In this document: positions 2,180 through 24,643 of the stretch, piece after piece
How the letters are laid out: every line of letters begins with the position of its first letter
How positions within the stretch are numbered: the stretch's first letter is position 1
The notes under the pieces: model-generated
Told to the model about the DNA's origin: nothing
Databases searched by the model: none
What the model saw: the letters and a program-made list of their open reading frames with translations, nothing else
Program-made: the position numbers and the translations under genes
Assembly: GCA_964453435.1 (NCBI GenBank)
Contig: CAYVQZ010000002.1
Location: forward strand, 179,439-243,438
Reading direction: 5' to 3'
DNA: 64,000 nucleotides
From: an uncultured bacterium
GTDB lineage: Bacteria; Abyssobacteria; SURF-5

Positions 2180-2272
2180 CGGAACACCTCTCAGACTTTG
2201 TTTTCGCGGCTTCGCGATTCGAGTTTCCGTTGAACACCCCGAAGGCTCAAGGCTCCGGCGCGCTTGAGCTAA

Positions 2273-2292
2273 CTGACTGATACGTCAGTCAG
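2273..2292. promoter_or_regulatory. Perfect inverted repeat CTGACTGA-tacg-TCAGTCAG upstream of the radical SAM-TetR operon; candidate TetR operator
   Basis: 8-bp arms with a 4-nt loop, read directly, about 95 nt upstream of the radical SAM start at 2179. TetR regulators commonly bind such palindromes. Confidence 0.3.
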
Positions 2293-2550
2293 CTTATCAC
2301 ACCCGACGTCTCCTGTCAAGATGTGGCCATCGAAAATACAACCCTCATAGTGGAGTATTCCGGCCCCTGCGCCCCAACGACCCGAAAACATTTCCGCAAC
2401 CTTTCAAGACGACTTGCAACATGCGAAGGCTCCAACTGCAAGATGTATGTATCTTTGATAGCCGGGCCTGTTATCGGAACGCAGGAATTTTGGTGAGCCT
2501 GCTGGCAGTGTCTCCAAAAACGTGTACGGAACGATGTGCCCGATGCCCGC

Positions 2551-2579
2551 TTGACACAGCCCGCAGCACCGTGTAAAAT
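2551..2579 (+). promoter_or_regulatory. Candidate sigma70 promoter (TTGACA-17nt-TAAAAT) oriented toward the cytochrome/oxidoreductase operon
   Basis: TTGACA at 2551-2556, a 17-nt spacer, then TAAAAT at 2574-2579 with TG immediately upstream. About 180 nt upstream of the first operon gene. Confidence 0.35.
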
Positions 2580-2758
2580 AAAGAAACCAACCAAAAAGAC
2601 TGCAAGTTCGGTCCCCGAAACACACACCTCCAGAAGGTTTCATCCTCTGGTTGTTAATTCGGCCTGATAATAAAAAATGAATAAGAGCGACGAATACTCA
2701 AAATCGCATCTGCGGTCACATTCAAATCTGCCGGCCGCGGAACCGGCCGCAGCGTAAG

Positions 2759-3406
2759 TTGAAAAGAGCGATAGTGGGCAAAATATCAAAGAAGAAGAAT
2801 TCGGCCATCACGCTCGGAATATTTGTCGGTGGATTCGTATTCCTCCATCTGGTGGGTCGCCATGGCATGCCCTTACTCATGTATACGCGACAATCACAGC
2901 CGGTGAGCTTCAGTCATGCGATCCACGGTCGGGATGTCGGCATCTCCTGCGAGACCTGTCATTTCTTTTATGCGGATGGCAGTTGGTCGGGAATCCCCAC
3001 TATCGACGTCTGCGCAAACTGCCATAGCGAAGTTCTTGGGGAGTCAGAGGCCGAGAAGCATTTTGTCGAGAACTATGTGAAAAAAGACAGAGAAGTGGAA
3101 TGGGGCCTCTATTTCAGACAACCTCAGTGCGTGTCTTTCTCGCATTCCTCGCACGTCAGAGGCGCAGAACTCGCCTGTGAAACGTGTCACGGCCCCCAGG
3201 GTCTCTCCGACCAATCAACGAGATATCTGACCAACCGAGTTACAAAATACAGCTACGTGCTGTACGGCTCGGAAACAGAAAAGAATCTGAGTGCGGTGAT
3301 ACGCAAGAAGAGAAGCAACGTGTGGGGAACCATGGGAATGAACGAGTGCGCAGAGTGTCATCGAGCCAGAGGAACAAGTACGGCATGTTTTATTTGTCAC
3401 AGATAA
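2759..3406 (+). CDS. Membrane-anchored pentaheme cytochrome c (QrcA/ActA-like)
   Basis: Five CxxCH motifs (CETCH, CANCH, CETCH, CAECH, CFICH) and an N-terminal TM helix ITLGIFVGGFVFLHLV. The start is uncertain: TTG at 2759 or GTG at 2774. Confidence 0.75.
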   Translation: MKRAIVGKISKKKNSAITLGIFVGGFVFLHLVGRHGMPLLMYTRQSQPVSFSHAIHGRDVGISCETCHFFYADGSWSGIPTIDVCANCHSEVLGESEAEKHFVENYVKKDREVEWGLYFRQPQCVSFSHSSHVRGAELACETCHGPQGLSDQSTRYLTNRVTKYSYVLYGSETEKNLSAVIRKKRSNVWGTMGMNECAECHRARGTSTACFICHR

Positions 3407-3437
3407 ACGGAATGTATCGGGGTTGGGAAACCGTCAA

Positions 3438-5825: not shown

Positions 5826-5833
5826 GAAACGAC

Positions 5834-6583
5834 ATGAAGCGGGATTCCGCTCAAGGAGCGCTTATCCGCTACGGGATGATTATAGACCTTGACAAGTGCA
5901 CCGGATGCGGTAACTGCGCGGTCGCCTGTCATATGGAGAACAACGTCCCATTCATGGTAGACGAAAGCGACAAGGCGCGCAACATTGCCTGGATGAGGAT
6001 TTATCGTGTTACCAATGGGGCGGAATATCCGCGCATTCGAGTGGCCCATATTCCGCGGCCCTGCATGCAATGCGACCACCACACACCGTGCGTCTCTGTC
6101 TGTCCTGCCAGCGCGACAAACTATGACAAAGACACGGGACTCGTCGACCAGATAAACACCCGATGCATCGGTTGCCGTTATTGCATGGCGGCGTGTCCGT
6201 ACATGGTTCGATGCTTTAATTGGTGGGACCCGGTCTGGCCCGCGGACACAGAGAAATACCTCAACCCCGATGTCGCGCCGAGGATGCGGGGCGTAGTGGA
6301 AAAATGCACATTCTGCTCGCATAGGTACACGAAGGCAAAAAACAAAGCTCATGCGGAAGGTCGAACCGCATTGGAAAAGGGTGAGTACATGCCCGCCTGT
6401 GTCGAGGCATGCCCCGTCGGCGCCATGTATTTCGGCGATTTAAACAACCCCGCTGACGAGGTGGCGGTCTTTGCCAGGAGCGAACGCGCATTCAGGCTTC
6501 TCGAAAGCCTGCGTTCCGAACCGAAAGTATATTACCTCAGCTCCGAGAGTTGGGTGAAGCGATGGGCGGACAACGGCAGATGA
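5834..6583 (+). CDS. 4Fe-4S ferredoxin-type iron-sulfur subunit (QrcC/PsrB-like)
   Basis: Multiple CxxCxxCxxxCP clusters (CTGCGNCAVACH, CIGCRYCMAACP, CVEACP). Start taken at MKRDSAQG; the track ORF starts earlier, overlapping the upstream gene. Confidence 0.75.
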   Translation: MKRDSAQGALIRYGMIIDLDKCTGCGNCAVACHMENNVPFMVDESDKARNIAWMRIYRVTNGAEYPRIRVAHIPRPCMQCDHHTPCVSVCPASATNYDKDTGLVDQINTRCIGCRYCMAACPYMVRCFNWWDPVWPADTEKYLNPDVAPRMRGVVEKCTFCSHRYTKAKNKAHAEGRTALEKGEYMPACVEACPVGAMYFGDLNNPADEVAVFARSERAFRLLESLRSEPKVYYLSSESWVKRWADNGR

Positions 6584-6617
6584 ATCGCTCAGGTCTATAA
6601 ATAAGTCATACAGGCGA

Positions 6618-7871
6618 GTGAATCAAATGAGTTCAACAACGAACGACCCTCAGAAAATTCAAAGATGTTCGAGCGCAAGGTTCTTTCTGTGGGTGTCATT
6701 TTGGGCAATCGTGCTGCTCTGGGGGCTCTTCGGGGCGGCGTTGTGCCTGCTCAAAGGCTTGAACCAGACCGGAATGAATAACTATTTCGTTTTCGGCCTC
6801 TGGATTACGGTTGACCTGGCCATTATCGCACTCGGCGCGGGAGCGTTTTTCAGCGGATTCCTTTTCTACGTTCTGCGGATGGAATCTCTGCGAGAATTGA
6901 TCGGAGCCGCAGTTGTCGTCGGCTTTATATGTTATAGCGGCGCCGTCGGCATGTTGACCGTAGACATCGGGCAGCCCCTGCGCGGATACTTCAGCTTTTG
7001 GCACGCGAATGTCCATTCCATGTTGACGGAGGTAATCTTTTGCATTACGACATACTTGTTCGTGTTGACTATTGAATGCGTGCCCCTGGTGACCGGGAAT
7101 GCAACGGTCGGTAAGGCGCCGTTCCTCAGACGGTTGGGAGAGCACTTGCACGAGATCATGGTGGTCTTCGCGATTATCGGGGCTTTCCTCTCATTTTTTC
7201 ATCAGGGCTCTCTCGGAGGGATGTTCGGTGTTCTGTATGCCCGGCCGTTTTCCTACAGAGCCGGTATTGGAATATGGCCGACCACTTTTTTCCTGTTCAT
7301 CCTGTCTGCGGTTGCGGCCGGCCCCGCCTTCACAACTCTTGTGATTTGGACGACCCAGAAAATCAGCGGACGCCGTCTTGTCGCACGAGCGACTCTCTCA
7401 AAAATTGCAAAACTATCAGCCATTCTGCTTATGATTTACCTTGTTCTGAAGGCCGCAGACACAATCTATTGGGCAAATGTTACGGCGCCGTCCATGAATC
7501 TCAATTTCTCCGGCTTTTACCAGTCTCCCTATGGAATGTGGCTGCTGTTTTCCGAACTCTATCTGTTCGGATTGGTGCCGGCAATTATTCTGCTGATACC
7601 GAGGGCGCGGGACAACGATTTCTGGTTGGTCGCGGGATGCCTGTTTATGTGCGTCGGGATCGCCATTAATCGCTTCTCCGTGGCCATCCAGACACTTGCG
7701 ATTCCGGTTCTTCCATTCGAACGATTCATGGTTTACGTCCCCACATGGCAGGAGTGGTCGATTGTGGCCGCCGTCATCGCCTATGGCGTCATTGTCTTTT
7801 CTCTTGCATATCGCTATTTGAATCTGTTCCCCCGGGAAATAGAATTGAACACATTGGAACGCATGGAGTAA
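6618..7871 (+). CDS. NrfD/PsrC-family polytopic membrane quinone-interacting subunit (QrcD-like)
   Basis: 417 aa, highly hydrophobic with multiple predicted TM helices. Position follows the Mo and FeS subunits, as in CISM complexes. Confidence 0.75.
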   Translation: MNQMSSTTNDPQKIQRCSSARFFLWVSFWAIVLLWGLFGAALCLLKGLNQTGMNNYFVFGLWITVDLAIIALGAGAFFSGFLFYVLRMESLRELIGAAVVVGFICYSGAVGMLTVDIGQPLRGYFSFWHANVHSMLTEVIFCITTYLFVLTIECVPLVTGNATVGKAPFLRRLGEHLHEIMVVFAIIGAFLSFFHQGSLGGMFGVLYARPFSYRAGIGIWPTTFFLFILSAVAAGPAFTTLVIWTTQKISGRRLVARATLSKIAKLSAILLMIYLVLKAADTIYWANVTAPSMNLNFSGFYQSPYGMWLLFSELYLFGLVPAIILLIPRARDNDFWLVAGCLFMCVGIAINRFSVAIQTLAIPVLPFERFMVYVPTWQEWSIVAAVIAYGVIVFSLAYRYLNLFPREIELNTLERME

Positions 7872-7875
7872 AAGT

Positions 7876-8073
7876 ATGTGGCCGACAATATTTGAATTCA
7901 GTTGGGATACCGGCCATATGATCTTCTTCGGCGTTTTCTACGCCATAGCCATCGCAATCGCGACAAGTATCGTGTACGCCGTTACACGGTCGATTGTCGA
8001 TATGTTCACCGATGCTGAAGATGTTCTTTCGAATCACTTGGATGAGAGAACAAATTATGCGCAAGAGGAATGA
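7876..8073 (+). CDS. Small (65 aa) membrane protein, possible accessory subunit
   Basis: GGAG 8 nt upstream of ATG. Hydrophobic helix IFFGVFYAIAIAIATSIVYAV. It lies 5 nt after the NrfD-like gene. Confidence 0.4.
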   Translation: MWPTIFEFSWDTGHMIFFGVFYAIAIAIATSIVYAVTRSIVDMFTDAEDVLSNHLDERTNYAQEE

Positions 8074-8193
8074 CCGGCTTTTCCTGCCGATTATTATGTC
8101 GCCCGGCGGCGTGGGAAAGACGCGCGTCCCATGGTCAATGACTGAAGAAGATTGTCGCAACGCCCGGATGGATGAATGGGGGAGGACCAATTG

Positions 8194-9228
8194 ATGTGTC
8201 GAAAGAGACTGATTATCCCTGCTATCGTCATTATCTCCGTATTCTGGTTGGTGTTTTCCGCGCTTGCAGGGGAAGCTGCGAAAGAGCGCGAACCGCAGGA
8301 GTGCGTCTATGTCGGAGTGAAGAAGTGCGCCTTCTGCCATGTCCGGCTCGATGATTCGCTTCGAACATGGGCCATCACCAAGCACGCCAACGCCCTGGCC
8401 GCCCTTCGCACGCCCGAGGCGAAAAAGTTCTCGCCGGCCCCCGACGAAGACCCAAAATGCCTCAAATGTCACATGACGGGCACGATTCTTGACCCCGTGG
8501 ATATCGAGGTTGTTCACGACTTTCAGGGAGTCCAGTGCGAGATGTGTCATGGCCCCGGAAAACTCTACAAGATCGAAATGGCGCGCGCGCTTCCGATTCA
8601 CGAAGAATTGAATGAGGAGGAATGCACTCGAAGAGGTTTGGTCATCCCAACCGAACAAACCTGCCGCAAATGCCACAACGAAGAATGTCCTGTTTATCAC
8701 GGGTTCGATTTCGACGAGGCCGTCAAGTTGATCAAACACGGCCAGAAGGAGGTAAAGTGCGAATATATCGGTCAGGAAAAATGTACCTTCTGCCATGTCA
8801 AGGCTGATGAATCCGCGTCGGTATGGGTAATCTTGAAACATATCAACGCATTCTCGGTGCTTCAAACAGAACTGGCCAAAAAGTTCTCCAACGACCCCAC
8901 CAACGACGAAAGGTGCCTGGAATGCCATTCCACAGGCTTGAATGCGCCGGGTGGCTATTCCGTCGACGATCCCGCAAGTGAAAAGCTTGAGGGTGTCCAG
9001 TGCGAGATGTGCCATGGATGGGGATATAGTTATGTCGAAACCATGGCGAAGGCCAAGACACTGGGTCTTCATGGCGTAAAAAACGATTGTGTGCGGCACG
9101 GACTCGTCATACCGGACGAAAACGTGTGCGTCCGGTGCCACAACAGCCGCTGTCCGGTCTTCACCGGATTCGATTTCGAGGCCAGCCTAAAACAGCTAAA
9201 GCACGGGAAAGCCTTCAAAAAGCACTAA
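8194..9228 (+). CDS. Periplasmic octaheme cytochrome c formed by tandem duplication of a tetraheme unit
   Basis: Eight CxxCH motifs with a signal peptide. The two halves are clearly homologous (CAFCHV../CTFCHV.., GVQCEMCHGPG/GVQCEMCHGWG, CRKCHNEECPVYHGFDFDEAVKLIKHG/CVRCHNSRCPVFTGFDFEASLKQLKHG). GGGGGAGG RBS before ATG 8194. Confidence 0.8.
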   Translation: MCRKRLIIPAIVIISVFWLVFSALAGEAAKEREPQECVYVGVKKCAFCHVRLDDSLRTWAITKHANALAALRTPEAKKFSPAPDEDPKCLKCHMTGTILDPVDIEVVHDFQGVQCEMCHGPGKLYKIEMARALPIHEELNEEECTRRGLVIPTEQTCRKCHNEECPVYHGFDFDEAVKLIKHGQKEVKCEYIGQEKCTFCHVKADESASVWVILKHINAFSVLQTELAKKFSNDPTNDERCLECHSTGLNAPGGYSVDDPASEKLEGVQCEMCHGWGYSYVETMAKAKTLGLHGVKNDCVRHGLVIPDENVCVRCHNSRCPVFTGFDFEASLKQLKHGKAFKKH

Positions 9229-9351
9229 TCCCTTATTGCTCGGTCGGAACTGTCCCGATTGATGCGCTATTGCTCCGTTGCGCGAGCCGGAGCCCCGCGC
9301 CATCGCTGCGCGAGGGAATCCCAGGAGGATGTCCCATGATCGACAATCCGT

Positions 9352-9451
9352 GCGTAGGGGGCAGCCCGCCAATCTATCCCGCGAATGCGCGGGACTTCGC
9401 TCCGCTCAGCGATGAACAAGGGGGGATTCCGTAATTGGGTACAGCCCCTAC
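9352..9451. repeat. Degenerate copy of the dispersed 'tatcccgcgaa(a/t)gcgcgggacttcgct..gctcagcga' hairpin element, bounded by inverted CGTAGGGGC/GCCCCTACG
   Basis: Direct match to the 90-bp element found at 38.3, 41.8, 49.7 and 62.0 kb. Confidence 0.5.
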
Positions 9452-9718
9452 GCTGGCTTATCGGCAATATGGAAAATCGCAGGAAAGTCTCCCCGGGCCT
9501 CTTTGTCCCTCCAATCATCGGTTAATCGGTCTCAGAAACCAGCCGTTTCCGGCGCAGACACTCCGGACTTTTTCCGGGTTCCCTCCGGATTTTTCGTTCC
9601 CCCAAGGCTTGCGCTCATATTGAAAAATAAACTGAACATCTTTCTTGACATTGATTTACAGCTATGCTAAAATGCGCCGAAACGGGAGAATAATATTCAT
9701 CGCATCGAGGAGGCAAGA

Positions 9719-11092
9719 TTGGCACGTCCGGTGTTGATGGTTGTTGATGACGAACAACATGTTCTCGATACCTGCCGCGATATCTTCAAAGAAGTCTACG
9801 AAGTAATCCCCAAGCGCTCAGCCAAAGAAGCGCTGTCCCACATGGCCGATAATCAGGTCGACCTCATCTTCCTCGACATCACAATGCCCGAACTCGACGG
9901 GATGGAAATGCTCAATCGGGTCCGCATGATGGATGACCCGCCGCCCGTCGTGATGGTCACGGCTACGCGCAACATCAAGTCCGCGGTGGCGGCAATGAAA
10001 CTCGGCGCATTCGATTACATCACCAAGCCGTTCGACATCGATGAATTGCGCCTGGTCGCCGAAAAGGCCCTCGAGAACCGCACCCTGGTTAATGAGGTGC
10101 GCAATCTTCGCTCCCAGATCGAAAAGAGATACGGCTTCGAGAATCTCGTGGGCGAAAGCAAGCCCATGCAGGAAATCTACAAGAAAATCGAGCAACTCGC
10201 CAACAAACGCACGACGGTGCTTTTGCTGGGCGAGAGCGGAACGGGAAAGGAATTGGTCGCGAGAGCAATCCATTATCATCAAGACAGTCTTCGCAAGGGT
10301 GGACCGTTCATTGCGCTCGACTGCAACACCCTCCCCGAGTCCCTCTTCGAAAGTGAGTTGTTCGGACATGAAAAGGGCGCCTTCACCGGAGCCACCAAAA
10401 AGGTCGGACGATGTGAACTTGCCGACAAGGGGACATTGTTTCTTGACGAAATCGGGGAAATCCCACACTCCGTCCAAGTCAAACTCCTGAGATTTCTGCA
10501 AGAGCACGAATTCGTCCGTATCGGTGGAACCCAAAACATATCGGTCGACGTCCGAATCGTCGCCGCCACGAACCGCGACCTCGAAAAAGCCGTAAAAGAA
10601 GGAAAATTCAGGGAAGACCTCTATTACCGCGTGAATGTGGTTCCGATCTACATCCCTCCGTTGCGAGAACGCTCCGAGGATATCCCGCTTCTCCTCGACC
10701 ATTTCATCAAGAAGTTCTCGGAAGAGCTGGATGTTCCCCCCAAAACGCTCACGCCGGCGGCGGTCGACCTGCTCGTGACCCACACCTGGCCGGGAAACGT
10801 GCGCGAGCTGCAAAACGTCGTCGAACGACTGCTCGTCCTCTCAAACAAGGAAGTCACCGATATCGAAGACCTCCCCGAAAGCGTCCGGCTTGCGAGACAT
10901 GATGTTTCGCAATACTCCGATTCCATTTTCTCGGGCGAACTCTCGCTCGAACAGGCCGAGCGACAATTCCTCAGCGAGATAATCTCCGAGGCTCTCAGAC
11001 GCGCCAACGGCGTCCAAACCCGAGCGGCCGAAATGCTGAAAACAAGCAGGCGCACCCTCAAGTATCAGATGGATAAACTGGGACTCTCCTGA
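9719..11092 (+). CDS. Sigma-54-dependent Fis-family response regulator (NtrC-like: receiver + AAA+ + HTH)
   Basis: Receiver domain (VVDDE...LIFLDITMP), Walker A GESGTGKE, GAFTGA motif, C-terminal HTH. TTG start with GAGGAGG RBS. Confidence 0.85.
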   Translation: MARPVLMVVDDEQHVLDTCRDIFKEVYEVIPKRSAKEALSHMADNQVDLIFLDITMPELDGMEMLNRVRMMDDPPPVVMVTATRNIKSAVAAMKLGAFDYITKPFDIDELRLVAEKALENRTLVNEVRNLRSQIEKRYGFENLVGESKPMQEIYKKIEQLANKRTTVLLLGESGTGKELVARAIHYHQDSLRKGGPFIALDCNTLPESLFESELFGHEKGAFTGATKKVGRCELADKGTLFLDEIGEIPHSVQVKLLRFLQEHEFVRIGGTQNISVDVRIVAATNRDLEKAVKEGKFREDLYYRVNVVPIYIPPLRERSEDIPLLLDHFIKKFSEELDVPPKTLTPAAVDLLVTHTWPGNVRELQNVVERLLVLSNKEVTDIEDLPESVRLARHDVSQYSDSIFSGELSLEQAERQFLSEIISEALRRANGVQTRAAEMLKTSRRTLKYQMDKLGLS

Positions 11093-11313
11093 CAACGAGC
11101 GGTTTTGTACGCCGCCCGTCCACAAATGTTCCCGAAGCAACCACTTAGACGCCGACTTTTCTTGTGCCTCAACAATCCGTTTACAACCCTATACCCCAAG
11201 ATATAGACGACTCCTTTTCTTTACCTATAGATAAAGTGGCTTGGCATCTTCTTTGCTCAAAAACAATGTACGAAAAGATGCCATATTTATCCTCAATTAA
11301 CGGACCTCGAAAG

Positions 11314-12207
11314 ATGGCGGGCGTGAACCAAGTTGCGGAAAAAAAATTGCGGCGGAAGGAAGAGGGCAAGATGCTGATACTCGAAGTGCTGGAACTGCCC
11401 ACCCTCTCCGTCGTCTTGAACAAAGTCCTCCGAGTCGCCGGCAATGACCGCTCGAGCGCCGACGACATGGCCGAGGTGATTTCGCAGGACCAGGCGCTGA
11501 CATCGAATGTTCTGAAAATCGCAAACTCGGCCTATTTCGGGCTTTCACAAAAGGTAACAACCGTCTCCCGGGCCATCGTTGTGCTCGGTTTCGACGCCGT
11601 GAAAAGCATTGCCCTGAGCGCGTCCGTCATCGACGCGTTCCGCAAACACGCGAATCACGAACACTTTGATCGCAGCCGCTTCTGGACTCACTCGCTGGCA
11701 TGCGCCTATATGTCACGGAAAATCGCCGGAGTGACCCACAAGTCCCAGGCCGAAACCGCCTTCGTGTGCGGGCTTCTCCACGACATCGGCAAGATTGTGC
11801 TCGACATCTATTTCCCCGATAGCTACCGCTGCGTCCTCAACAAGCTCGACAACGGCCGGCGGACGTCGATGGAGGCGGAAGATGAAGTGCTGGGATTCAC
11901 GCATCCGGAAGTCGGCATGTGGGTCGCCCAGCGATGGAAATTTCCGAAATCCATCATCTTCAGCATCGCGAATCACCACGGAATGATAGCCGACGACGCC
12001 CGGTATCGGTCGCTCACGGCTACCGTCCGGGTAGCCAACCACCTCTGTCTGCAAGAGGGTATTTGCCTCTCGAACCAGGCGGTGGTCGAGCCGTTTGAGG
12101 ATTCGATACCCGAGACCATCGGGCTGAAAGCCGAAAGTGTCAAGGAACTCAGGGATGACCTGGCTGCCCGAAAAGATTCTATCCTGTCTCTGTTCGCGGG
12201 CAACTGA
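11314..12207 (+). CDS. HDOD-domain signalling protein
   Basis: HDOD signature (LLHDIGKIVL). Start is uncertain: ATG 11314 or 11371; the track ORF begins at 11164. Confidence 0.65.
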   Translation: MAGVNQVAEKKLRRKEEGKMLILEVLELPTLSVVLNKVLRVAGNDRSSADDMAEVISQDQALTSNVLKIANSAYFGLSQKVTTVSRAIVVLGFDAVKSIALSASVIDAFRKHANHEHFDRSRFWTHSLACAYMSRKIAGVTHKSQAETAFVCGLLHDIGKIVLDIYFPDSYRCVLNKLDNGRRTSMEAEDEVLGFTHPEVGMWVAQRWKFPKSIIFSIANHHGMIADDARYRSLTATVRVANHLCLQEGICLSNQAVVEPFEDSIPETIGLKAESVKELRDDLAARKDSILSLFAGN

Positions 12208-12230
12208 GAACCATCGAGGATGCGGGGATC

Positions 12231-14024
12231 ATGGCAGGTTACAGCAAGGAAACCATGGAAAAAATGGAGGCGGGGATAGGTTCCGACGAGGCCGTCTCTC
12301 TCTGTTCGCTCATTGACCGGCTGGCCGACGCGGCCTCTTTGGTGGAACGCATGCCCGAACTCTGCATGTCCATTCTGAACATGGTCATCGAGTTCACCCC
12401 GTGCGAGAACGCTTCAATCATGCTCACCAATTCCGGAACCGGAGCGCTCGACCTGTTCTGCGCCAAGGGAAGGTCGGACAACGGGGCCTTTTTCGGAAAT
12501 GCCCGACTTTCGCCCCTCTCGTTTGCGCTCGGCGAGGGCGCGGCCGGATGGGTGGCCGAGCAAGCCCGGCCCATCGTCATCAACGATTGCGAGGACGATG
12601 CCCGGTTTATCAGGCTGCCGTCGTCCCGGAAAGGGGTAAATTCCATCATATGCGCTCCGCTCCTCGTCGAACAGTCCGTCATCGGAGTGCTGAACTGCAG
12701 TCATCCGGACAAGCAGAGATTCGGCCCGGCCGACAAGCGCGCCGTGGCTATGATCGCTCGTCACGCCTCCGTTCTCATTCGAACCGCCATGGCCATCGAC
12801 CGGATGCGCGGCGAACGCAGGCGATGGGAGGAACAGGCGGAAAGCGCGAAGCAAAGGATCGCTCAGTTGGACCATACACTCGGAGAAATGCGGGAACAAC
12901 TGTACCGGACGCAGAAATTCGCCTCGCTCGGTGAACTGCTGGCCGGAGCGGCGCACGAACTGAACAACCGCATCGCGCCCATCCTCATCTATTCGCAAAT
13001 GCTCCGGCGCCACGTTACCGATGAGAAAGACCAAAAACGCCTCGGTGTCGTCGAAGACTCGGCCATCGGCGCAAAAACCATTCTCCAAACCCTGCTCAAT
13101 TATTCAAGGACCGAAAAAAGCGAAAAAGAGCCGGTCGACCTCAATCAGATTCTTCTAAACACGGTCACGCTGGTTGAATACAAAATGCGGAATCGGGGGA
13201 TCGAACTCTCGCTGGAACTCTGTTCCGACCTCCCGAGCGTGTCCGCAAACGAAAAACAGATTGCGCAGGTGCTTCTCAACCTCATCAACAACGCAATTCA
13301 CGCCATGGAGGAGAAGGGCGGAAAACTTTACGTGCGGACAACCTGTGACCGCCAAAATGTCAAGCTTACGATTTCGGATTCAGGCGCCGGCATCCCTGAG
13401 GAAATCCTCGATAAAATCTTCGACCCGTTCTTCACAACGAAGGAATCCGGCAAAGGAACCGGCCTCGGTCTGAGCATATCAAAACGATATGTCGATGAAC
13501 ATGGCGGGCGCATCTACATTGAGAGCACTAATAACGCCGGCGCCACCTTCGTCGTCGAGCTTCCCTCGACGCCCGCAGAGACAAATGCATCGGCATCCCG
13601 GCTCGAACAAGCGCCGAAGGAATCCAATGGCGAAGACGGAGCCGCGCGAATTCTCGTTGTCGACGACGACGCCACCATCCGCAACGTGATTCGGGACGTC
13701 CTCGGCAGCGCGTACGATGTCGAATTTGCCGAAAACGGAAATGAGGCGACCCAAAAAATCCAGGGCGATGTGTTCGACCTTCTCGTCGTCGACTACCACA
13801 TGCCCGGACTGGACGGGAAACAGCTCTACGAATGGGTCGCAGACCATCGGCCCGTCATGAAGAACCGGATCGTATTCAGCACCGGCGACATCTGTCGCGA
13901 TGAAATCCGGGATTTCATCGAAAGCACCGGCTGCATATGTCTTTTGAAACCATTCTCCACGGCCGACCTTCGGAAGGTCGTCTCCGCCGGCATTCACACA
14001 GAAGGAGCGGGTCTGCGGATTTGA
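12231..14024 (+). CDS. Hybrid sensor histidine kinase (GAF + HisKA + HATPase_c + C-terminal receiver)
   Basis: H-box [11 protein letters not shown]-box [13 protein letters not shown], then receiver ILVVDDD...[10 protein letters not shown]. Confidence 0.85.
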
Positions 14025-16095: not shown

Positions 16096-19000
16096 TCAGG
16101 TGGTTTCGGCCCAATCGCGGCAGAGAACTTCTGCCTGCTCGAGGACAAGCTCCGTAGCGCGGGCCTGCTTGTCGGGCGGGTAGCCGTAGCGGCGGAGAAT
16201 CCTTTTGGTCATCACTCGCATCTGGGCGCGGACGTTCTCGCGCAGCGTCCAATCGATGGTCACGTTGTTGCGCACGGCCTTCACGAGTTCCTGTGCGATG
16301 GTTTTCAGGGTTTCATCTCCGAGAACCTGCACCGCGCTGTCATTCGTCTCCAGGGCGTCGTAGAAAGCCACTTCCTCTTCTGTGAGTCCGAGCTTTTCTC
16401 CGCGCCGGTCGGCCTCGCGCAGGTCCTTGGCCAGATTGATGAGCTCCTCTATGACTTGCACCGTTGCTATGGCCCGATTCTGATACTTTCTGATTGATTC
16501 CTCGAGCATTTGGGCGAACGAGCGGGCCTGCACGATATTCTTTCGTTTGCGTGTCTTGATCTCGCCTTCGAGCAACTTTCGCAGCATCTCGACTGCCAGA
16601 TTCCTGTGCGGCATGCCGCGCACCTCGGCGAGAAATTCGTCGGACAGAATCGAGACATCCGGCTTCTTGAGTCCGGCAGCCGCAAAGATGTCGATTATTC
16701 TGTCCGACGCTACCGCGCGCGATACGATCTGCCGAATCGCATGGTCCAATTCCTCGGGACTGCGCCGGTCGCCTGTCACGCTTTTGCGCAGGACGGATTT
16801 GACCGCCTGGAAGAACGCGACGTCATCCCGAATCGCAAGCGCCTTCTCGTGCGGTACGGACAGCGCGAACGCATGCGACAAATCCGTGACCGCTCTCGAC
16901 AGCCGCTCCTTGCCGTCCTCCTGTTGAAGCACGTGCTCCTGCGCGGCGGGCAACACCGACAGCCGCTCCTGCGGATTGGCGGATTTCCACCGCGACCAGT
17001 CGAACCCGTGGAATATGCCGCAGCAGATTTCGTATTTCTCGAGCATCGCTTCAACGGCCCTCGCCTGGTCAATGGCGGTCTCGCCCTGTCCGCCGCTTCT
17101 CGTATAGTTCTCCACGGCTGACTGCAGTTCGTGCGCGAGGCCGAGGTAATCCACAATGAGGCCGCCGGGCTTGTCCTTGAACTTCCGGTTCACGCGCGCT
17201 ATCGCCTGCATCAATCCGTGGCTTCGCATAGGCTTATCCATGTACATCGTGTGCAGGCTCGGGACGTTGAATCCCGTCAACCACATATCGCGAACAATCG
17301 CCACCTGAAACGAGTCGTCGGGGTCCCTGAACCTGTTTGCAAGCTCCTCGCGCCGCGCTTTCGGCCGGATATGCGGCTGCCACTCGGCGGGGTCGGACGC
17401 CGAGCCGGTCATGACCACTTTGATGATGCCTTTCTTGTCGTCATCGTAATGCCATTCGTGGCGCAGAGCGACAATGGCCCTGTACAGGTCAACGCAGATT
17501 CGGCGGCTCATGCACACAATCATGGCTTTACCGTCCATCGCCCGGAGACGCTCTTCGAAGTGGTTCACGATGTCCTGCGCGATAAGCCTTATTCTCTTTT
17601 CCGCGCCGACAATCGCCTCAAGCTGAGCCCACTTCGTCTTGAGCTGCTCCTTATGTTCGACCTCTTCGCCTTCGGTCACCTCCTCGAAATCCTCATCAAG
17701 CTTTGGCCTTGCAGCCTCGTCAAGTTCCAGCTTTGCAAGGCGGCTTTCGTAGTATATCGGGACAGTCGCCTCGTCCTGCACGGCGCGCTCGATGTCATAG
17801 ATGCTGATATAGTCGCCGAAGACCGCGCGTGTGTTCTTATCGGTCAATTCGATTGGTGTTCCCGTGAACCCGATGAACGAAGCGTTCGGCAGCGCGTCCC
17901 TCATATATCGGGCGAACCCGTCAATGAAATCGTACTGGCTTCGATGGGCCTCATCGGCGATGACGACGATATTGCGCCGGTCCGAGAGCAGCGGGTGCTG
18001 GTCCTCGCCCTGGGTCGGAAAGAACTTGTGGACCGTCGTGAATACGACGCCGCCCGAGGCCACTTTCAGCTTGGCGCGCAAATCGGCCCGACTCGCCGCC
18101 TGCGCGGGCGGCTGCCGCAACAATTCATGACACCGCGCGAACGTGCCGTAAAGCTGGTCGTCGAGGTCGTTGCGGTCGGTGATGACGACAAGCGTCGGGT
18201 TCTCCATTGCCGGATGCTGTATGACGCGGCCGGCGTAGAAGGCCATCGTAAGGCTCTTGCCCGAGCCCTGCGTGTGCCACACGACCCCGACACGCTTGTC
18301 GCCGGGGCGCGCGTCGGGCCGGCTTCGGGCAAAATAGGTTCCTTCCGACTCTTTCGCCACCAGAGCCTTTGCGGGAGAAACGCAGGCGCGGATGGTCTCC
18401 TCGACGGCCACGTTGACGCCGTGGTACTGGTGGTAACCGGCCATTTTCTTGACGAGGACGCCGCTGCTGACATCCTCGAAGACGATGAAGTATCTGATAA
18501 GATCGAGGAACCGCCGCTTGTCGAACACTCCTTGCAGCGCCACCTGCAATTGGGGTACAGATTGCTCGGCGAGTTCCTGCCCTTCGATGGTCCGCCACGG
18601 CATGAACCACTCGCGGTTGGCCGTGAGCGTGCCGATCCGGGCTTCTGTGCCGTCAGAGATGACAAGCGCTTCGTTATAGGCGAAGAGCGACGGGATCTGT
18701 TCCTTATAGGTCTGAAGCTGGTTGAAGGCCGACCAAATGGTTGCGTTCTCGTCGGCGGGGTTCTTCAGTTCTATTACCGCAAATGGCAGGCCATTGACGA
18801 ACAGAACGATGTCGGGCCTGCGCTCGCGGTGGTCCTCGACAACCGTAAACTGGTTCACGGCCAGAAACTCGTTGTTCTCGGGGTCGCCGTAATCCAGCGC
18901 GCGCAAATAATCGCCGCCGAATGAGCCGTCGGGGCGCTGGTATTCCACCGGCACTCCCTCGACCAGGTATTTATGAAGGGTGTGGTTGTTCGCCACGAGT

Positions 19001-19245
19001 GAAGGCGAGTCGAGGCGCGCGAGTTTCCGAAAGCCCTCTTCCAGGACATCGGGCGACATGTGCGGGTTGAGACGTTGGAGCGCCTGCCGGAGCCGGCGCT
19101 CCAGCAGGACTTGCTTGTAGTCGTCGCGCTCGGCATGCAGTTCGCCGGGCGCAATCTCGGGACCCGGGAGGATGAGGTAACCCATGCTTTCGAGCCAGGC
19201 CAGAGCGGCCTGCTCGACGATGGATTCGGTGAAGCCGTGGGTCAT
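16096..19245 (-). CDS. hsdR: Type I restriction enzyme R subunit
   Basis: 1049 aa. Conserved HsdR N-terminus [23 protein letters not shown] and helicase motifs (TGSGKS, DEAH). AGGAGG RBS. Confidence 0.9.
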
Positions 19246-19922
19246 TGGCCCCGCCTCCTGCTGGTCCGGGTGCGGTACAGTCGTTCGGTGAAACCGCCTT
19301 CCTTCTCAAAGGCTTTGGCCTGGGCGGCGATCTGGCGGTTGAGGAAATGACACGCGAGGTTCAAAAGAGAGAGCGCTGCGTTGGCCGCGAGTTCGGCGGA
19401 AGAGACGGACTGACACGGACCTTTACGGACAGGCACGGACGAGGAACTGCGTCGGTTGTTCTTGTTGTTTGCGGCTGTCTGTGCGTGTCCCTGCTTGTCC
19501 GTGAGGTTTCGGGATTGGTGAAGTTCTTCTTCGACCCAGTCTTTGACCTCTTGCAGCGTCGAGCAGCGCTTTGCCTTGAATCGGAGAAGCGCCGGATGAT
19601 CCGGCGCCCAAATCGGCAGCCCGCGCTGCCGCAGGAAATCCTCGTAGTCCAGCTTCAGTTCCTCCAGGCTTGCGCGCGCCACGTTGGTGAGTTTCAGTTC
19701 CATTTTCTTCGAGGTGGCCGAGGCCTGGCTGCCCTCGGCAATGTTCTGGACGCCGGAGCGCGCCGCCTGCACCATCTGGTCGTGGGTGCGGCTGCGCCTG
19801 TCGATGTAGCGGTCGCAGAACCGCGCGGTCATATCATAAACCAACTGAGCGACCTGGAAGCTCTTGAGCTTTCGGTAGCCGCCGTGCTTGGGGATCAGCG
19901 GTTCTTTGTCCATTGTGTCCAT
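19242..19922 (-). CDS. Four-helix-bundle protein (TIGR02436/bAvd-like) with C-terminal extension, embedded in the hsd operon
   Basis: [18 protein letters not shown]...GVQNIAEGS pattern typical of the four-helix-bundle family frequently found in hsd loci. Overlaps the hsdR start by 4 nt. Confidence 0.6.
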
Positions 19923-19931
19923 GGTGTTCTC

Positions 19932-20159
19932 CTAGACGGTTCTTGCCACGGTCCGCTCCGGATTGGGAACCCGCATCTCGCCGGAGATGAGCTTGGGGAG
20001 AAGGGTGTCGCGGAGAGCGGCGAGGGTGGGGAACTTACCACACCCCTTATGTCCTTTGCCACAGGAGATGTCCGGCCCAGACAGGGCCAAATAGCCTATC
20101 CTCTCCAGCCATGCCAAGGCGGCTTGCTCGACTACGGATTCGGTCAACCGTAAGGCCAT
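19932..20159 (-). pseudogene. Chimeric remnant: HsdR N-terminus-like ~30 aa fused to HsdS C-terminus-like ~25 aa (recombination scar)
   Basis: [32 protein letters not shown] resembles HsdR residues 1-33. ...[23 protein letters not shown] resembles the HsdS C-terminus [27 protein letters not shown]. Its ATG overlaps the TIR-gene TGA (ATGA). Confidence 0.6.
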
Positions 20160-21262
20160 CAGAAAGGAATCTCCTCTTCCTTTGTCCGCTCTGGCGATAT
20201 CAGTTCGTTGTTTCTCACTTCCCACCGCTTCCCGGTCCATTTCTTCAAGAGCGGTTGCAGCAAATCCGTTCCCTTGAATGAACGCCTATTCTGTTCATTC
20301 GTGCGGTAAGCTTTGAAAACGTGTGTCACTTGGTCCGGGGTTAGATCCTCGAAAATCGACAAAAGGTGCTCAATCTTCCATGCTGAGTCTTCCCAAGTCA
20401 CCGAAGCAGCATAGGCGGAGAGTGCACAATCGAATAACCTCGACCTGTCTGGTAGACGCTTGTGGAGTACCTGGAATATCTTGACTGCCATGCTGTCGGT
20501 ATCAGACCAGCTACATCCACCAAGCCCTTGCCCTTTCGCCATGAGACCGTAGGGATCAAGCCCCAGCCGGACGGCAATGAGCGGTACACCTCTCCCAATT
20601 GCCACACCCACTTCCTGATCTGTCCAATTGCTGTCTTTATAATCTTCAGAAAGCAACGCCACCAAAGCATCCATACTAAACAACGCCCGTTCAATCTCGC
20701 GCTGCCATTCTTCGGTCGGTTCGATGTCCTCATGTGCGACGAACGCCGCTATCCCGCAGCGAGCGAAGGATTCTTTAAGTCTCGTCGCATGCTGCTTGAC
20801 TGAAGATTTATGGCTGAGGAAGATGCGCACGTGCTCCTGCCCCCATATCCGCTTCAATGCCTCAGCCGGAATCGACGAAGCGGCAATACGCGGTCGAAAC
20901 ACTCCGGCTCTTTCGCGCCAATTATCTACCTTTATCGGTTCCACCTCGATGAACACTTCGCTGATATATTCATTCTGGCTATTATCCAACTTGTTGATAT
21001 CATCCTTGATGTGCTTTTGGAGGCTATCCCTGTTTTCCATCACTTTAAAGTAGATATCTTCTGACACCGTAAGCGTAATTGCATGGCCATAGGTTCCACC
21101 ATTCCAATTATCATAGTCCCATCCTTCATGAATGAAGACGACGCCGTTGACGACGATTTCTCTCAGAAGTCTCTCGCCCGTTTTCTCATAGAAGCGGTTC
21201 AAGGTTGCAAGGTATGAATCCACTTTGCCAGGGAGTCGGAATTGGCGGTCACCGGTGGTCAT
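20159..21262 (-). CDS. TIR-like domain protein (TIR_2/DUF1863-type core, residues ~145-240) with unknown N- and C-terminal domains; candidate anti-phage effector
   Basis: VRIFLSHKSSVKQHATRLKESFARCGIAAFVAHEDIEPTEEWQREIERALFSMDALVALLSEDYKDSNWTDQEVGVAIGRGVPLIAV matches the bacterial TIR pattern (F-S-H-K...D-I-x-G-x-W...S-x-W-x-x-x-E...IP). ATGA-coupled to hsdS upstream and to the scar ORF downstream. Confidence 0.6.
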   Translation of the reverse strand: MTTGDRQFRLPGKVDSYLATLNRFYEKTGERLLREIVVNGVVFIHEGWDYDNWNGGTYGHAITLTVSEDIYFKVMENRDSLQKHIKDDINKLDNSQNEYISEVFIEVEPIKVDNWRERAGVFRPRIAASSIPAEALKRIWGQEHVRIFLSHKSSVKQHATRLKESFARCGIAAFVAHEDIEPTEEWQREIERALFSMDALVALLSEDYKDSNWTDQEVGVAIGRGVPLIAVRLGLDPYGLMAKGQGLGGCSWSDTDSMAVKIFQVLHKRLPDRSRLFDCALSAYAASVTWEDSAWKIEHLLSIFEDLTPDQVTHVFKAYRTNEQNRRSFKGTDLLQPLLKKWTGKRWEVRNNELISPERTKEEEIPF

Positions 21263-22566
21263 TTCACAGCCTCCATCTTTGGCAGGCGCAGTTCGCCCGA
21301 AATCAACTTGGGTAGCAGCGCGTCACGGATGGCAGCGAGCGCGCGAGACTCGTTCCTGTTCACCTCGGCTCGCAGAAACAGTGGTTGCGTGTTCTTGTCG
21401 AAGGTGGCAATGAGTTGTGAATTGTCAGGAAGAACGATGTCGCGGCTACCCACCACCTCGGGACGGATGGCGGGGTATGCTCCGCCGTCGGCAAGCCGAC
21501 CGAGTTCTTGTCCAAACTCCGGCCGTGTCGTCGCAATATGAAGGAACGCCCAGTTGCCATCCTTCGGTGTCAATGCAGCGAAACCTGTGGATGCGATTAG
21601 CGATTTCGATGGGTTCAAGGCAAGGAAGTATGCTCCGCGATCTGGTCGGACGGTCGACAGCACGGTATCGCCATGACTCAATCGTCGACGAGCCCTGCTC
21701 GGTTCTTCACCTCGAAGATAGCGGCTGATTATCCCTACCTCGCCGTGCATGACCTCGCTGATCTCGATATAGTCTATGACATCAAGGTGATCGCGTCGTC
21801 CAAGAGTGAGGGCGTTGATGTTAGCAATGTCTGAAATTTTGCCAATCCTCCACCCCTTCGGAATCTCGCCCAATTCGGAGTTCTCAAACGAATCCGGGAA
21901 GAGGTCGGCGACGTCTTTGGGCAGGTTGGGGTTGCGGCCTTGGGCTTTGGCGTGGACGGGGTCGAAGTCCACGAACCAGCTTTTGAAGATGGCCCGCGCA
22001 ATGGCCTCCAGCGTCTGATTCATTCGCCGGTTCAGCTCGATCTTGTCGTCCAACGCCCCGAGAATGCAGGCGATGGCGCGTTGCTGTTCGAGGGGAGGGA
22101 TGGTGATGTACATGCGACGTTGGTCTCGAAGACTCACATACTCCGCCATGTCCGTTTGGCCTGCCACTCCTGAAAACTGGACAAAGAACTCCCGCGAGTG
22201 CATCCAATAGTAAAGCCAACGAGGGTCCAAGCAATCACGATTCAAGACTCTCCAGAAACACAACTGGGGCGCATAGACGAACCGGGGTGTGTCATGTCGA
22301 ACAAATGCGAACCGTCCAACAGTCCCTTTCGATGTAAAAACCACATCTTCGGCTTGACTAATCTTAATTCCGACTTTTGCGAGGTCTTGTTCTGGAAAGC
22401 AATCCGCACCCGCGAAGTGAAAGCCGTTGTTGATGTTCTGCGCCCGCGCGAAAGGAATTCCCTGCGGTGACAACTCGGAGTTCTTGGCGCGATAGCCATC
22501 GTTGATCGCCAATACTCCGTTGTCGATCAATTCGGCAATGGGAGTAGGAGCGATATCACCCGCCAT
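21259..22566 (-). CDS. hsdS: Type I restriction-modification specificity subunit
   Basis: Two target-recognition-domain halves and a conserved C-terminal [16 protein letters not shown] at 22566 overlaps the hsdM stop (ATGGCGGGTGA). The track ORF is over-extended upstream. Confidence 0.85.
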
Positions 22567-24406
22567 ACCCGATATCCTCCAGATTCGCCCAGATGAGCTT
22601 ATCCAACTTGGCGGATTGGGCGGTTTGTTCGCGCAGTTCGGCGGTGAGGCGGGCCATCTTCTCCTCGAATGGCTCGCCGCCTGCCTGCCGAGCCCTTCCC
22701 TCGGCGATGGCTTGCTTGAGCCACCTACGCCCCGCGGTCGTCTTGAGTTCCTGTTCACGCGCTACAGCCGCTTCACGGCTGGTGAACTCCTCGTAATGTG
22801 CGATATAGCGGGGCTTGTTCTTCTTCGTCCAATCGGTTCCCTGCCCAGACACATGCTCTTGCCATCGCCGAGGGAGGTTATCGGTGTGGCCAATGTAGTA
22901 GCTGCCGCCTTCGCAAGCGATGGCGTAGACGAAATACACGCCAGGTCTCGGCGCAGGCAGGCCGTCCTCGACTTCCGCCGCGCCGACGTAGCGGCCGGGC
23001 GTGAGGATGTGGTTGTGATGGCGAATGTCATCGAGCGTGGCGGATTTGCACAAGCCCGGAACATCCTCATATTTTTGTGCGCAGTCCTTGTCGCCCCGCC
23101 ATGCGTGATATGTGTCGGCGATTTTCCGAATATCCTCGTCGGTCAGTTCGCGGTGGACGCGGTCGATCATGGTTCCGAGCTTGCGGGCGTCGATGATTAA
23201 GGTCTCTCCGCGTCGGTCGCGGAATCGCCGGTTCTTCTTGTCGCGCGCGATGAACCAGAGGCAGACGGGAATCTGGGTGGAGTAGAACAATTGGCCCGGC
23301 ATGGCGACCATGCAGTCAACCAGATCGGCCTCGATGATGTTCCTGCGGATTTCGCCCTCGCCGGATTGGTTGGAGGACATCGAGCCGTTGGCCAGGACAA
23401 AGCCCGCCAGACCGGTGGGCGCGAGATGATAGATGAAGTGCTGGACCCATGCGAAGTTGGCGTTGGAGGCGGGCGGGATACCATACTTCCAGCGCTTGTC
23501 GTCTTTCAGGAGTTCGCCGCGCCAATCGCTGTCGTTGAAGGGCGGATTGGCCAAAACATAGTCCGCCTTGAGGTCGGGGTGCAGGTCGCGGTGGAAACTG
23601 TCGGCGTGTTCCGGCCCGAGGTTGTTGTCGATTCCCCGGATGGCGAGGTTCATTTTCGCCAGACGCCATGTGGTGTGGTTCGACTCCTGCCCGAACACGC
23701 TTACGTTGCCCCTTGCCCGGCCTCCGTTGCCGTTGCCCGACGCATGCGCCTCGACGAACTGGACCGACTGCACGAACATGCCGCCCGAGCCGCAGCACGG
23801 GTCGTACACGCGTCCCTTGAAGGGGGCGAGCATCTCGACCAGCACGCGCACAACACAGCGCGGTGTGTAGAACTGGCCGCCCTTCTTGCCTTCGGCGCTC
23901 GCGAATTGCGAGAGGAAATATTCATACACGCGTCCCAGGATGTCCTTCGAGCGGTTCTCCTTGTCACCGAGGCCGATGTTTCCGATGAGGTCGATAAGCT
24001 GGCCGAGCCGCTGCTTGTCGAGGCGCGGATGCGAATATTCCTTCGGGAGCACACCTTTCAGTGACGGGTTCACGTTCTCAATCGCCTGCATGGCGTCGTC
24101 TATGACTTTGCCGATGGTGGTCTGTTTGGCGCATGCTTTCAGGTGTGACCACCGGGCCTCCTTCGGGACCCAGAAGATGTTCACGGCGCGATACTCATCC
24201 GGGTCCTCCGGGTCGGCGCCCTGCTCACGCTGCGTTTCGAGAAAGGCATGGTGCTCCTCGAAGGCGTCGGATATATATTTCAGGAAAATCAAGCCGAGCA
24301 CGACATGCTTGTACTCGGCGGCGTCCATATTCGAGCGCAGCGCGTCGGCCGCCTGCCACAGTTGCCGTTCGAAACCGAGGTTCGCGCCGTTGCTGGTCTT
24401 GGCCAT
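22556..24406 (-). CDS. hsdM: Type I restriction-modification N6-adenine DNA methyltransferase with an inserted YhbQ-like GIY-YIG nuclease domain
   Basis: HsdM N-terminal domain and NPPF motif. An ~85-aa insertion [67 protein letters not shown]...RRWLKQAI (GIY-YIG/COG2827-like) sits between the catalytic domain and the conserved C-terminal helix ([17 protein letters not shown]...). Start ATG at 24406 with GGGAGA RBS. Confidence 0.8.
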
Positions 24407-24643
24407 TCGGCAGTGTCTCCCATCTGTTCGTTCTGGCGACAGAATAGTTCTTCTCGGACTCTTCCATTGGAAATGATACATCATGTTATTGAAATAATCA
24501 ACTGAAAGTGCATTTGCGTCGCTGCGCTCGGTCAATTCGGGGGGACAGGATACTGATTTTTACTAGCAACGCCTCTGTTTTGCATATTGCTGAACAACGC
24601 GTCCCGCATGATAAGGTCCCCGATGGAGAAGAGCGAAAAGCGA

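Follow-up and report, generated by a model that had tools for sequence, protein, structure and literature searches.

Positions 16096–24406 of the window (here the whole 64,000-nt stretch that was analysed, from contig CAYVQZ010000002.1 of an uncultured bacterium of the SURF-5 lineage) hold six co-oriented and closely packed ORFs on the minus strand. These are the hsdM, hsdS and hsdR genes of a restriction-modification (RM) system of type I and, lodged between hsdS and hsdR, a gene for a TIR-domain protein, a 75-aa remnant ORF and a gene for a four-helix-bundle (4HB) protein. Gene identities were assigned by Pfam, NCBIfam and PADLOC scans which, together with the ORF list, bear out the coordinates and the order of the six genes given in a preliminary description of the locus. 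The genes, and the two parts of the remnant ORF, are as follows.

nt 22556–24406, minus strand: hsdM, type I methyltransferase subunit, 616 aa from the ATG at 24406 (Pfam HsdM_N 6e-27, N6_Mtase 3e-106; PADLOC MTase_I 8e-219)
nt 21259–22566, minus strand: hsdS, specificity subunit, 435 aa, with an 11-nt overlap with the hsdM stop (Pfam Methylase_S; PADLOC Specificity_I 6e-88)
nt 20159–21262, minus strand: TIR-domain protein, 367 aa, its ATG overlapping the hsdS stop (ATGA; Pfam TIR_2)
nt 20049–20159, minus strand: 5' part of the remnant ORF, the first ~37 codons of a second hsdR (hsdR'), by similarity to the HsdR of this locus
nt 19932–20027, minus strand: 3' part of the remnant ORF, the last ~25–31 codons of a second hsdS (hsdS') with its stop, by similarity to the HsdS of this locus
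nt 19242–19922, minus strand: 4HB protein with a suffix domain, 226 aa, its stop overlapping the hsdR start (ATGA; TIGR04258, TIGR02436, Pfam 23S_rRNA_IVP)
nt 16096–19245, minus strand: hsdR, type I restriction/translocase subunit, 1049 aa (Pfam HSDR_N, SWI2_SNF2, T1R_D3-like, T1RH-like_C; TIGR00348 598 bits)

The type I operon is apparently intact. HsdS is full length, amino acids 21–432 matching positions 17–439 of the 446 in the PADLOC Specificity_I profile, and this coverage includes the two target-recognition domains and the conserved helices expected of a type I subunit. In HsdR the nuclease, the SF2 motor and the C-terminal domain are all present (HSDR_N 4e-51, SWI2_SNF2 1e-79, T1RH-like_C 7e-137). 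The nearest solved structure is EcoR124I HsdR (1e-30), of which the protein is predicted to be a distant relative.

The six genes had also been described as uniformly coupled by ATGA or other 4-nt overlaps. Read directly, this applies to only two of the five junctions, hsdS/TIR and 4HB/hsdR, both of which are ATGA overlaps, and does not apply to the other three. The 11-nt overlap of hsdM and hsdS is ATGGCGGGTGA; the TIR gene ends in TGATG, in which its stop and the next ATG have one nucleotide in common; and the remnant ORF does not overlap the 4HB gene, from which it is separated by a 9-nt spacer containing AGGAG. The small ORF is taken here as the 75-aa frame at nt 19932–20159, which begins at the TIR stop and was also predicted, for three identical metagenome contigs, by an independent gene caller; a mechanical 102-aa ORF starting at nt 20240 was set aside.

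The TIR-domain protein is composed of four recognizable parts:

nt 20939–21262, minus strand: N-terminal alpha/beta domain, aa 1–108, candidate sensor (AlphaFold2 model)
nt 20513–20866, minus strand: TIR domain, aa 133–250, with the invariant E217 in 'SNWTDQE' (Pfam, alignment, Foldseek)
nt 20228–20500, minus strand: C-terminal helical domain, aa 255–345 (AlphaFold2 pLDDT 87–98; no Pfam match)
nt 20162–20182, minus strand: acidic C-terminal tip KEEEIPF, resembling the C-terminal tip of SSB (alignment, enrichment count)

That the middle domain is a TIR domain, as first suspected from the sequence, is confirmed by structure prediction. The AlphaFold model has a mean pLDDT of 80, with a disordered linker between the N-terminal and TIR domains and a flexible tail after the helical domain, and the best Foldseek matches, B. 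cereus TIR, SPARTA TIR and SpbK, identify a flavodoxin-like TIR fold. Two Pfam models exceed their cut-offs (PF13676 TIR_2, 58.7 bits against 28; PF01582, 22.8 against 21.3). Residue E217 is invariant across an alignment of 32 homologues, and in the family profile it coincides with the Glu of 'SSWCLDEL', the catalytic residue, in the TIR domain of the plant NADase RPP1 (7crb). The N-terminal domain shows only a weak KH-like similarity in fold searches, and the helical domain is retained in a Klebsiella plasmid homologue (see below) despite a different N-terminus. No PADLOC v2 model matches the protein strongly; the best candidate family is PDC-S66 (3e-4).

Homologues of the TIR protein are numerous, with 1839 word-index matches and 3545 representatives at E<1e-3 (~3500 at 50% clustering), and are strongly conserved over their full length, with dozens of invariant residues. 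They occur in Planctomycetota, Verrucomicrobiota, Kiritimatiellia, Nitrospinota, Chloroflexota and Acidobacteriota, among others. Neighbourhoods were surveyed in a sample of 80 species-level genome loci, cited below by their L numbers. In 16 of the 80 the homologue is again found among hsd genes, its slot and orientation being those of the window, with hsdM and/or hsdS upstream, hsdR downstream and all on one strand; among loci with at least 3 kb on either side the figure is 10 of 46. These embedded members are found in every identity band and are dispersed over the neighbour-joining tree, in every clade. The TIR gene follows hsdS directly in 11 of 15 embedded loci, and in 8 of these the hsdS stop overlaps the TIR start (ATGA or GTGA). 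The association with type I operons is thus genuine and far beyond chance, yet facultative, as the remaining 64 loci carry a solitary TIR gene and lack hsd genes within 10 kb.

All-against-all clustering of 1153 flanking ORFs revealed no recurrent partner other than hsdM, hsdS and hsdR, all other clusters being confined to four loci or fewer. Pfam and PADLOC scans of the 112 nearest neighbours gave a heterogeneous set, mostly housekeeping genes with a few scattered defence genes. The solitary copies are not degraded operons, since a search for hsd-end 'arms' beside them gave a single weak match, in L010. Nor does the TIR gene keep pace with its host operon: in L074 the HsdR is 69% identical to that of the window and the TIR protein 37%, while in L002 the values are 58% and 69%, and overall the two identities are uncorrelated. 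An origin of the family in phages is unlikely, with only 8 matches in 2.9 million viral contigs, one of them the contig of L071. Being mostly solitary and having no recurrent partner, the TIR protein is therefore interpreted here as a candidate for autonomous abortive infection that is often carried by type I operons, and not as a subunit of a combined system.

The second cargo gene encodes a 4HB protein that scores above the cut-offs of two NCBIfam models (TIGR04258, 69 bits against 40; TIGR02436, 35 against 24). It has more than 8000 close homologues, several of which are named 'four helix bundle suffix protein' in their source records. The gene adjoins restriction genes in 5 of 7 sampled homologues, in keeping with the earlier remark that such proteins are recurrent passengers of hsd operons, and L088 and L089 display an identical hsdS-4HB-hsdR layout with a 4-nt overlap onto hsdR. 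The 4HB-suffix protein is a habitual companion of hsdR. Between its bundle and suffix domains (aa ~140–170; nt 19400–19500) there is a low-complexity stretch that lies outside the coverage of both models. The wider family, that of the 23S rRNA IVS proteins (TIGR02436, with the TIGR04258 suffix), also includes bAvd of diversity-generating retroelements. The gene in the window differs in being tied to hsdR and not to a retroelement; no reverse transcriptase ORF is present between 16 and 24.5 kb, template and variable repeats not having been searched for. A literature search on four-helix-bundle proteins and restriction yielded nothing useful.

The description of the operon as a cassette hotspot is supported by related loci. 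In the embedded loci the gap between hsdS and hsdR holds up to eight genes, many of them of defence type: AAA_15/AAA_21 ATPases with DUF4276, AbiEi/AbiEii, two reverse transcriptases, a Piwi and SIR2 pair, and genes with Schlafen/AlbA_2, FRG, Fic, RhuM, PIN, Abi_C, DUF488 or DUF5131 domains. The hsdM-hsdS gap may also be occupied, by HEPN-like, DUF1016/YhcG and Fic genes. An overlap with hsdS is not peculiar to the TIR gene, as unrelated cargo genes in L003, L016 and L071 have one too. Two loci illustrate the range. Locus L062 (nt 6681–12511) has four cargo elements between hsdS and hsdR, namely Piwi-domain and SIR2 proteins (a short-Argonaute-like pair), an hsdR 5' remnant, a TIR homologue and a Schlafen/AlbA_2 protein. 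Locus L004 (nt 1494–8680) has eight cargo genes, encoding a TIR homologue, a YaaC-like protein, an unknown, PIN and TPR proteins, a second unknown, AbiEi/DUF6088 and AbiEii, with an hsdR 5' remnant between the PIN and TPR genes.

The small ORF between the TIR and 4HB genes records part of the history of the locus. Its residues 5–37 are 69% identical to the N-terminus of the HsdR of the same locus (E 8e-12), and residues 45–68 are 74% identical to the C-terminus of its HsdS (E 5e-8; PADLOC Specificity_I C-terminus 2e-9). At the DNA level identity is ~75%, so the two pieces are gene ends from another, diverged operon and did not arise by recent duplication. In L002 the TIR gene directly abuts hsdR, and there hsdR begins at the TIR stop as the remnant ORF does here. 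Comparable fragments, the window counted, are found in 7 of 13 operons with intact ends. An analogous hsdR'::hsdS' chimera precedes an Abi_C gene in L074, an hsdR 5' fragment lies ahead of the TIR gene in L062, and hsdR 5' fragments separate cargo genes in L004, L052 (two) and L055. The junctions within these remnants fall at differing codons in different loci, which argues for illegitimate joins over a site-specific mechanism, and site-specific cassette integration was rejected on this ground. A phase-variable hsdS shufflon was also considered and rejected, as the hsdS' remnant comprises only the last ~25–31 codons, in direct orientation and with no target-recognition domain, and the operon contains no recombinase.

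Codon composition divides the locus into two classes. The G+C content at third codon positions (GC3) is 0.81 in the hsdM core, 0.76 in the 4HB gene, 0.77 in hsdR and 0.82 in the hsdS' remnant; in the TIR gene it is 0.57, in hsdS 0.63 and in the hsdR' remnant 0.69. By this measure hsdS and the TIR gene may be regarded as an incoming block. Both of the parent layouts that this predicts exist in other genomes, hsdS-TIR-hsdR in L002, L039, L066 and L071, and hsdS-4HB-hsdR in L088/L089. We infer a direction of recombination in which a backbone, hsdM-hsdS'-4HB-hsdR, would have recombined with a second operon, hsdM-hsdS-TIR-hsdR'. The incoming segment, consisting of hsdS, the TIR gene and the first ~37 codons of hsdR', would have replaced most of hsdS' through one crossover near the hsdM/hsdS boundary and one illegitimate join within hsdS', and the outcome would be the remnant ORF, a chimera of hsdR' and hsdS', that now separates the TIR gene from the 4HB gene. 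Whether by recombination or by a deletion between tandem operons, cargo appears to move together with hsdS, and this would account for the conserved hsdS-TIR overlap without any physical interaction of the two proteins.

Taken together, the locus is probably an intact type I operon in which two unrelated passengers have been stacked by recombination, the TIR protein being a candidate for an autonomous, single-gene abortive-infection system. In such a system the KH-like alpha/beta N-terminal domain, the helical C-terminal domain and the acidic-IPF tail would sense a cue of infection; the TIR domain would respond by associating with itself and hydrolysing NAD+, which would halt growth of the infected cell. 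The position behind hsdS would provide co-expression with the restriction enzyme, as well as passage to other operons along with hsdS when specificity genes are exchanged. The result would be a layered defence and not one machine. Three observations weigh against this account. Embedding in 20% of loci, in all clades, and the conserved hsdS overlap both exceed what is expected of a random landing pad; the difference in composition could be the usual foreignness of hsdS and cargo and not the mark of one block transfer; and a deletion between two tandem operons would leave the same remnant. The embedding rate and the overlap, in particular, leave room for a functional tie to the RM enzyme.

Such a tie is the basis of the first alternative, which resembles the single combined restriction-plus-abortive-infection system originally suggested for this locus. 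Here the TIR protein would be a guardian of the PrrC type, held inactive by HsdM and HsdS, perhaps with HsdR, and freed to act as an NADase once the enzyme has been disabled by an anti-restriction protein of a phage. Its gene has the same position as prrC in EcoprrI, between hsdS and hsdR (PMC12707154), and the preference for the place next to hsdS, the stop-start overlap in eight loci plus the window, and the recurrence of embedding in every clade of the family all speak for this reading. PrrC, however, is reported almost exclusively as an embedded protein, whereas in ~80% of cases the TIR homologue lacks both hsd genes within 10 kb and a recurrent partner. Moreover, the identities of TIR and HsdR to those of the window do not co-vary (L074 against L002), and the unrelated cargo of three loci noted above overlaps hsdS in like manner. 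One integrated system is therefore not indicated by the survey, and we consider the guardian arrangement unlikely, though it is the best of the alternatives.

A second alternative accepts the TIR fold but not an NADase effector. The protein might instead be a ThsB-type producer of a signal with its effector encoded elsewhere, or an N-glycosidase or transferase of the NDT/MilB type, acting on nucleosides, nucleotides or DNA. Weak matches to ThsB and ThcB4 models, and the few solitary homologues that adjoin ThsB-like genes, lend it some colour. The scores nevertheless favour a TIR domain proper, as TIR_2 reaches 58.7 bits against a cut-off of 28, while ThcB4 (44 against 220) and Nuc_deoxyrib_tr (17.4 against 28.8) fall short of theirs. 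No SLOG, Macro or SIR2 effector gene is present in the operon of the window according to the ORF list and Pfam, and no partner is conserved among the 80 loci. These points make a role other than that of an NADase improbable. Membership of Thoeris itself was rejected on the ThcB4 score, a PADLOC ThsB match of 1.7e-4 at best, and the lack of an effector in the operon. Least probable of all is that remnant and cargo genes alike are functionless, decaying or neutral hitch-hikers whose tight spacing was inherited from parent operons, for although two gene ends have clearly been fused in the 75-aa ORF, and degraded hsd genes lie beside 4HB genes in L084, L085 and L086, the TIR and 4HB genes are full length, share 50–76% and 66–85% identity with many full-length homologues across phyla and, in the TIR family, retain dozens of invariant residues, so that this description probably suits only the remnant ORF.

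The C-terminal tip of the TIR protein offers a possible clue to what is sensed. In the 32-homologue alignment P366 and F367 are nearly invariant and are preceded by I, L or V and by acidic residues, with variants such as DDDIPF, EDDLPF and DEEVPF in relatives; the tip follows a variable linker of low confidence (pLDDT below 50). An acidic-[ILV]PF end is found in 25 of the 80 family ORFs and in 1 of 1073 other ORFs from the same loci (p=5e-30). Among close homologues 86 of 117 have it, and among diverse representatives 27 of 103; it is present in three distant clades. It occurs in no other ORF of the 64-kb window. The same consensus characterizes the C-terminal tip of bacterial SSB (…DDDIPF), a docking site for many DNA-metabolism proteins, where an acidic run and I/L/V-P-F likewise come after a linker, although the TIR protein lacks an OB fold and is not an SSB. 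No paper connecting an SSB-like tip with an antiphage TIR protein was found.

More tentatively, these features suggest a wider scheme, for which the odds are rather against than for. The TIR family would be a standalone NAD+-depleting immune sensor whose IPF tip mimics that of SSB and serves as bait or tether for SSB-docking proteins, such as phage recombinases, replisome parts or host partners of SSB, their engagement switching the TIR domain on. Arrays of passengers, for their part, would build up in type I operons through recombination at the 3' end of hsdS and the 5' end of hsdR, both conserved, with cargo moving in swaps of hsdS specificity and leaving hsdR'::hsdS' footprints behind. Plasmid pKpVSI78_2 of K. 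pneumoniae (NZ_CP118040.1; L101:6737–7669), a conjugative IncFIA plasmid, encodes next to IS26 a 310-aa TIR homologue (WP_086540592.1) that keeps the TIR and C-terminal domains, ends in SDDIPF and differs from the protein of the window at its N-terminus, and which, coming from a cultivable host, is a candidate for experimental work.

The arrangement has close precedents, and the initial view that it matches nothing described was too strong. It is already established that type I RM operons host other defence genes. PrrC of EcoprrI, a suicide-type effector, is encoded between hsdS and hsdR and co-expressed with them (PMC12707154); EcoprrI is of type IC, and among solved structures the HsdR of the window is closest to that of EcoR124I, also type IC. 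The proteins themselves are unrelated, PrrC being an ABC-ATPase joined to an anticodon nuclease and almost always embedded, as against embedding in ~20% of genomes for the TIR family. DarTG2, between hsdS and hsdR in the RRDM island of EPEC (PMC12255303), TgvAB, embedded in the type I RM locus of VPI-2 in V. cholerae (PMC11411939), and the thousands of embedded families of the 'guilt-by-embedding' survey of Payne et al. 2024 (bioRxiv 10.1101/2024.01.29.577857) follow the same layout and logic, in which a type I operon houses defence modules that are independent of it, and differ from the window in their cargo. The words 'recombination', 'remnant', 'truncated', 'homologous', 'exchange' and 'hotspot' are all absent from the main text of that survey, and the hsdR-5'/hsdS-3' remnants appear not to be covered by it; its supplements mention neither PDC-S66 nor TIR.

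Among TIR proteins, the standalone NADase effectors SpbK, AbTir and B. cereus TIR have no detectable sequence relationship to the protein of the window beyond the TIR core, and the present family differs from them in having an alpha/beta domain at the N-terminus, a helical domain at the C-terminus and an acidic-IPF tail, all of its own. The TIR domains of Thoeris ThsB and type III ThcB4 are similar in size and position (NCBIfam ThcB4 match 1e-11), but Thoeris employs a ThsA-type effector, for which there is no gene in the operon of the window. A recent systematic survey of TIR proteins put standalone TIRs aside, and surveys that discard them would miss a family of this kind. If the protein is active, it would represent a widespread, unnamed, single-gene TIR defence family with members in many phyla and on a Klebsiella plasmid.

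Three of the findings are new. The first is the putative SSB-like acidic-IPF tip of the TIR family, which suggests in concrete terms how proteins of phage DNA metabolism might be read by a TIR sensor. The second is the chimeric remnant, together with the cargo-bounding remnants elsewhere and the composition of the hsdS-TIR block; such hsdR'::hsdS' remnants offer an explanation, at the level of sequence, of how arrays of embedded defence genes come to be assembled and exchanged, and orphan hsdR 5' ends are suggested as a search key for delimiting cargo blocks in type I operons. The third is a GIY-YIG domain inserted in HsdM, given here with the one remaining feature of the locus:

nt 22679–22954, minus strand: GIY-YIG domain, in-frame insert in hsdM at about aa 485–576 (Pfam GIY-YIG 8e-13)
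nt 24473–24501, minus strand: sigma-70-like promoter candidate upstream of hsdM (consensus scan, 9/12 matches; the count of such sites is not above that in shuffled controls)

The insert, of ~92 aa and YhbQ/UPF0213-like, lies between the methyltransferase core and the C-terminal helix. It is missing from the 13 HsdM homologues whose alignment spans the site, and it has a GC3 of 0.52, compared with 0.81 in the hsdM core. It has the look of a mobile nuclease domain that has lodged in hsdM. The junction of N6_Mtase with GIY-YIG recurs in about a dozen metagenomic proteins, and the HsdM tail is also borne by other GIY-YIG ORFs.

At the other end of the operon, HsdR amino acids 913–1037 (in the region of nt 16096–16500) match the PADLOC candidate family PDC-S15 (3e-9). 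In L084 (nt 7734–7955) hsdR is reduced to a 73-aa T1RH-like_C fragment that adjoins a 4HB gene. Some 'candidate' models may therefore detect C-terminal remnants of HsdR.

Terminator-like sites within the gene row show no excess over shuffled controls, and it is plausible that the six genes form a single operon. The sequence TTCTGATGGCC, which connects the stop of the TIR gene with the start of the gene that follows (window nt 20150–20170; L003:7660–7680; L001:1320–1335), is preserved in close relatives regardless of which gene comes downstream, and this suggests that the coupling signal it contains moves along with the TIR cassette.

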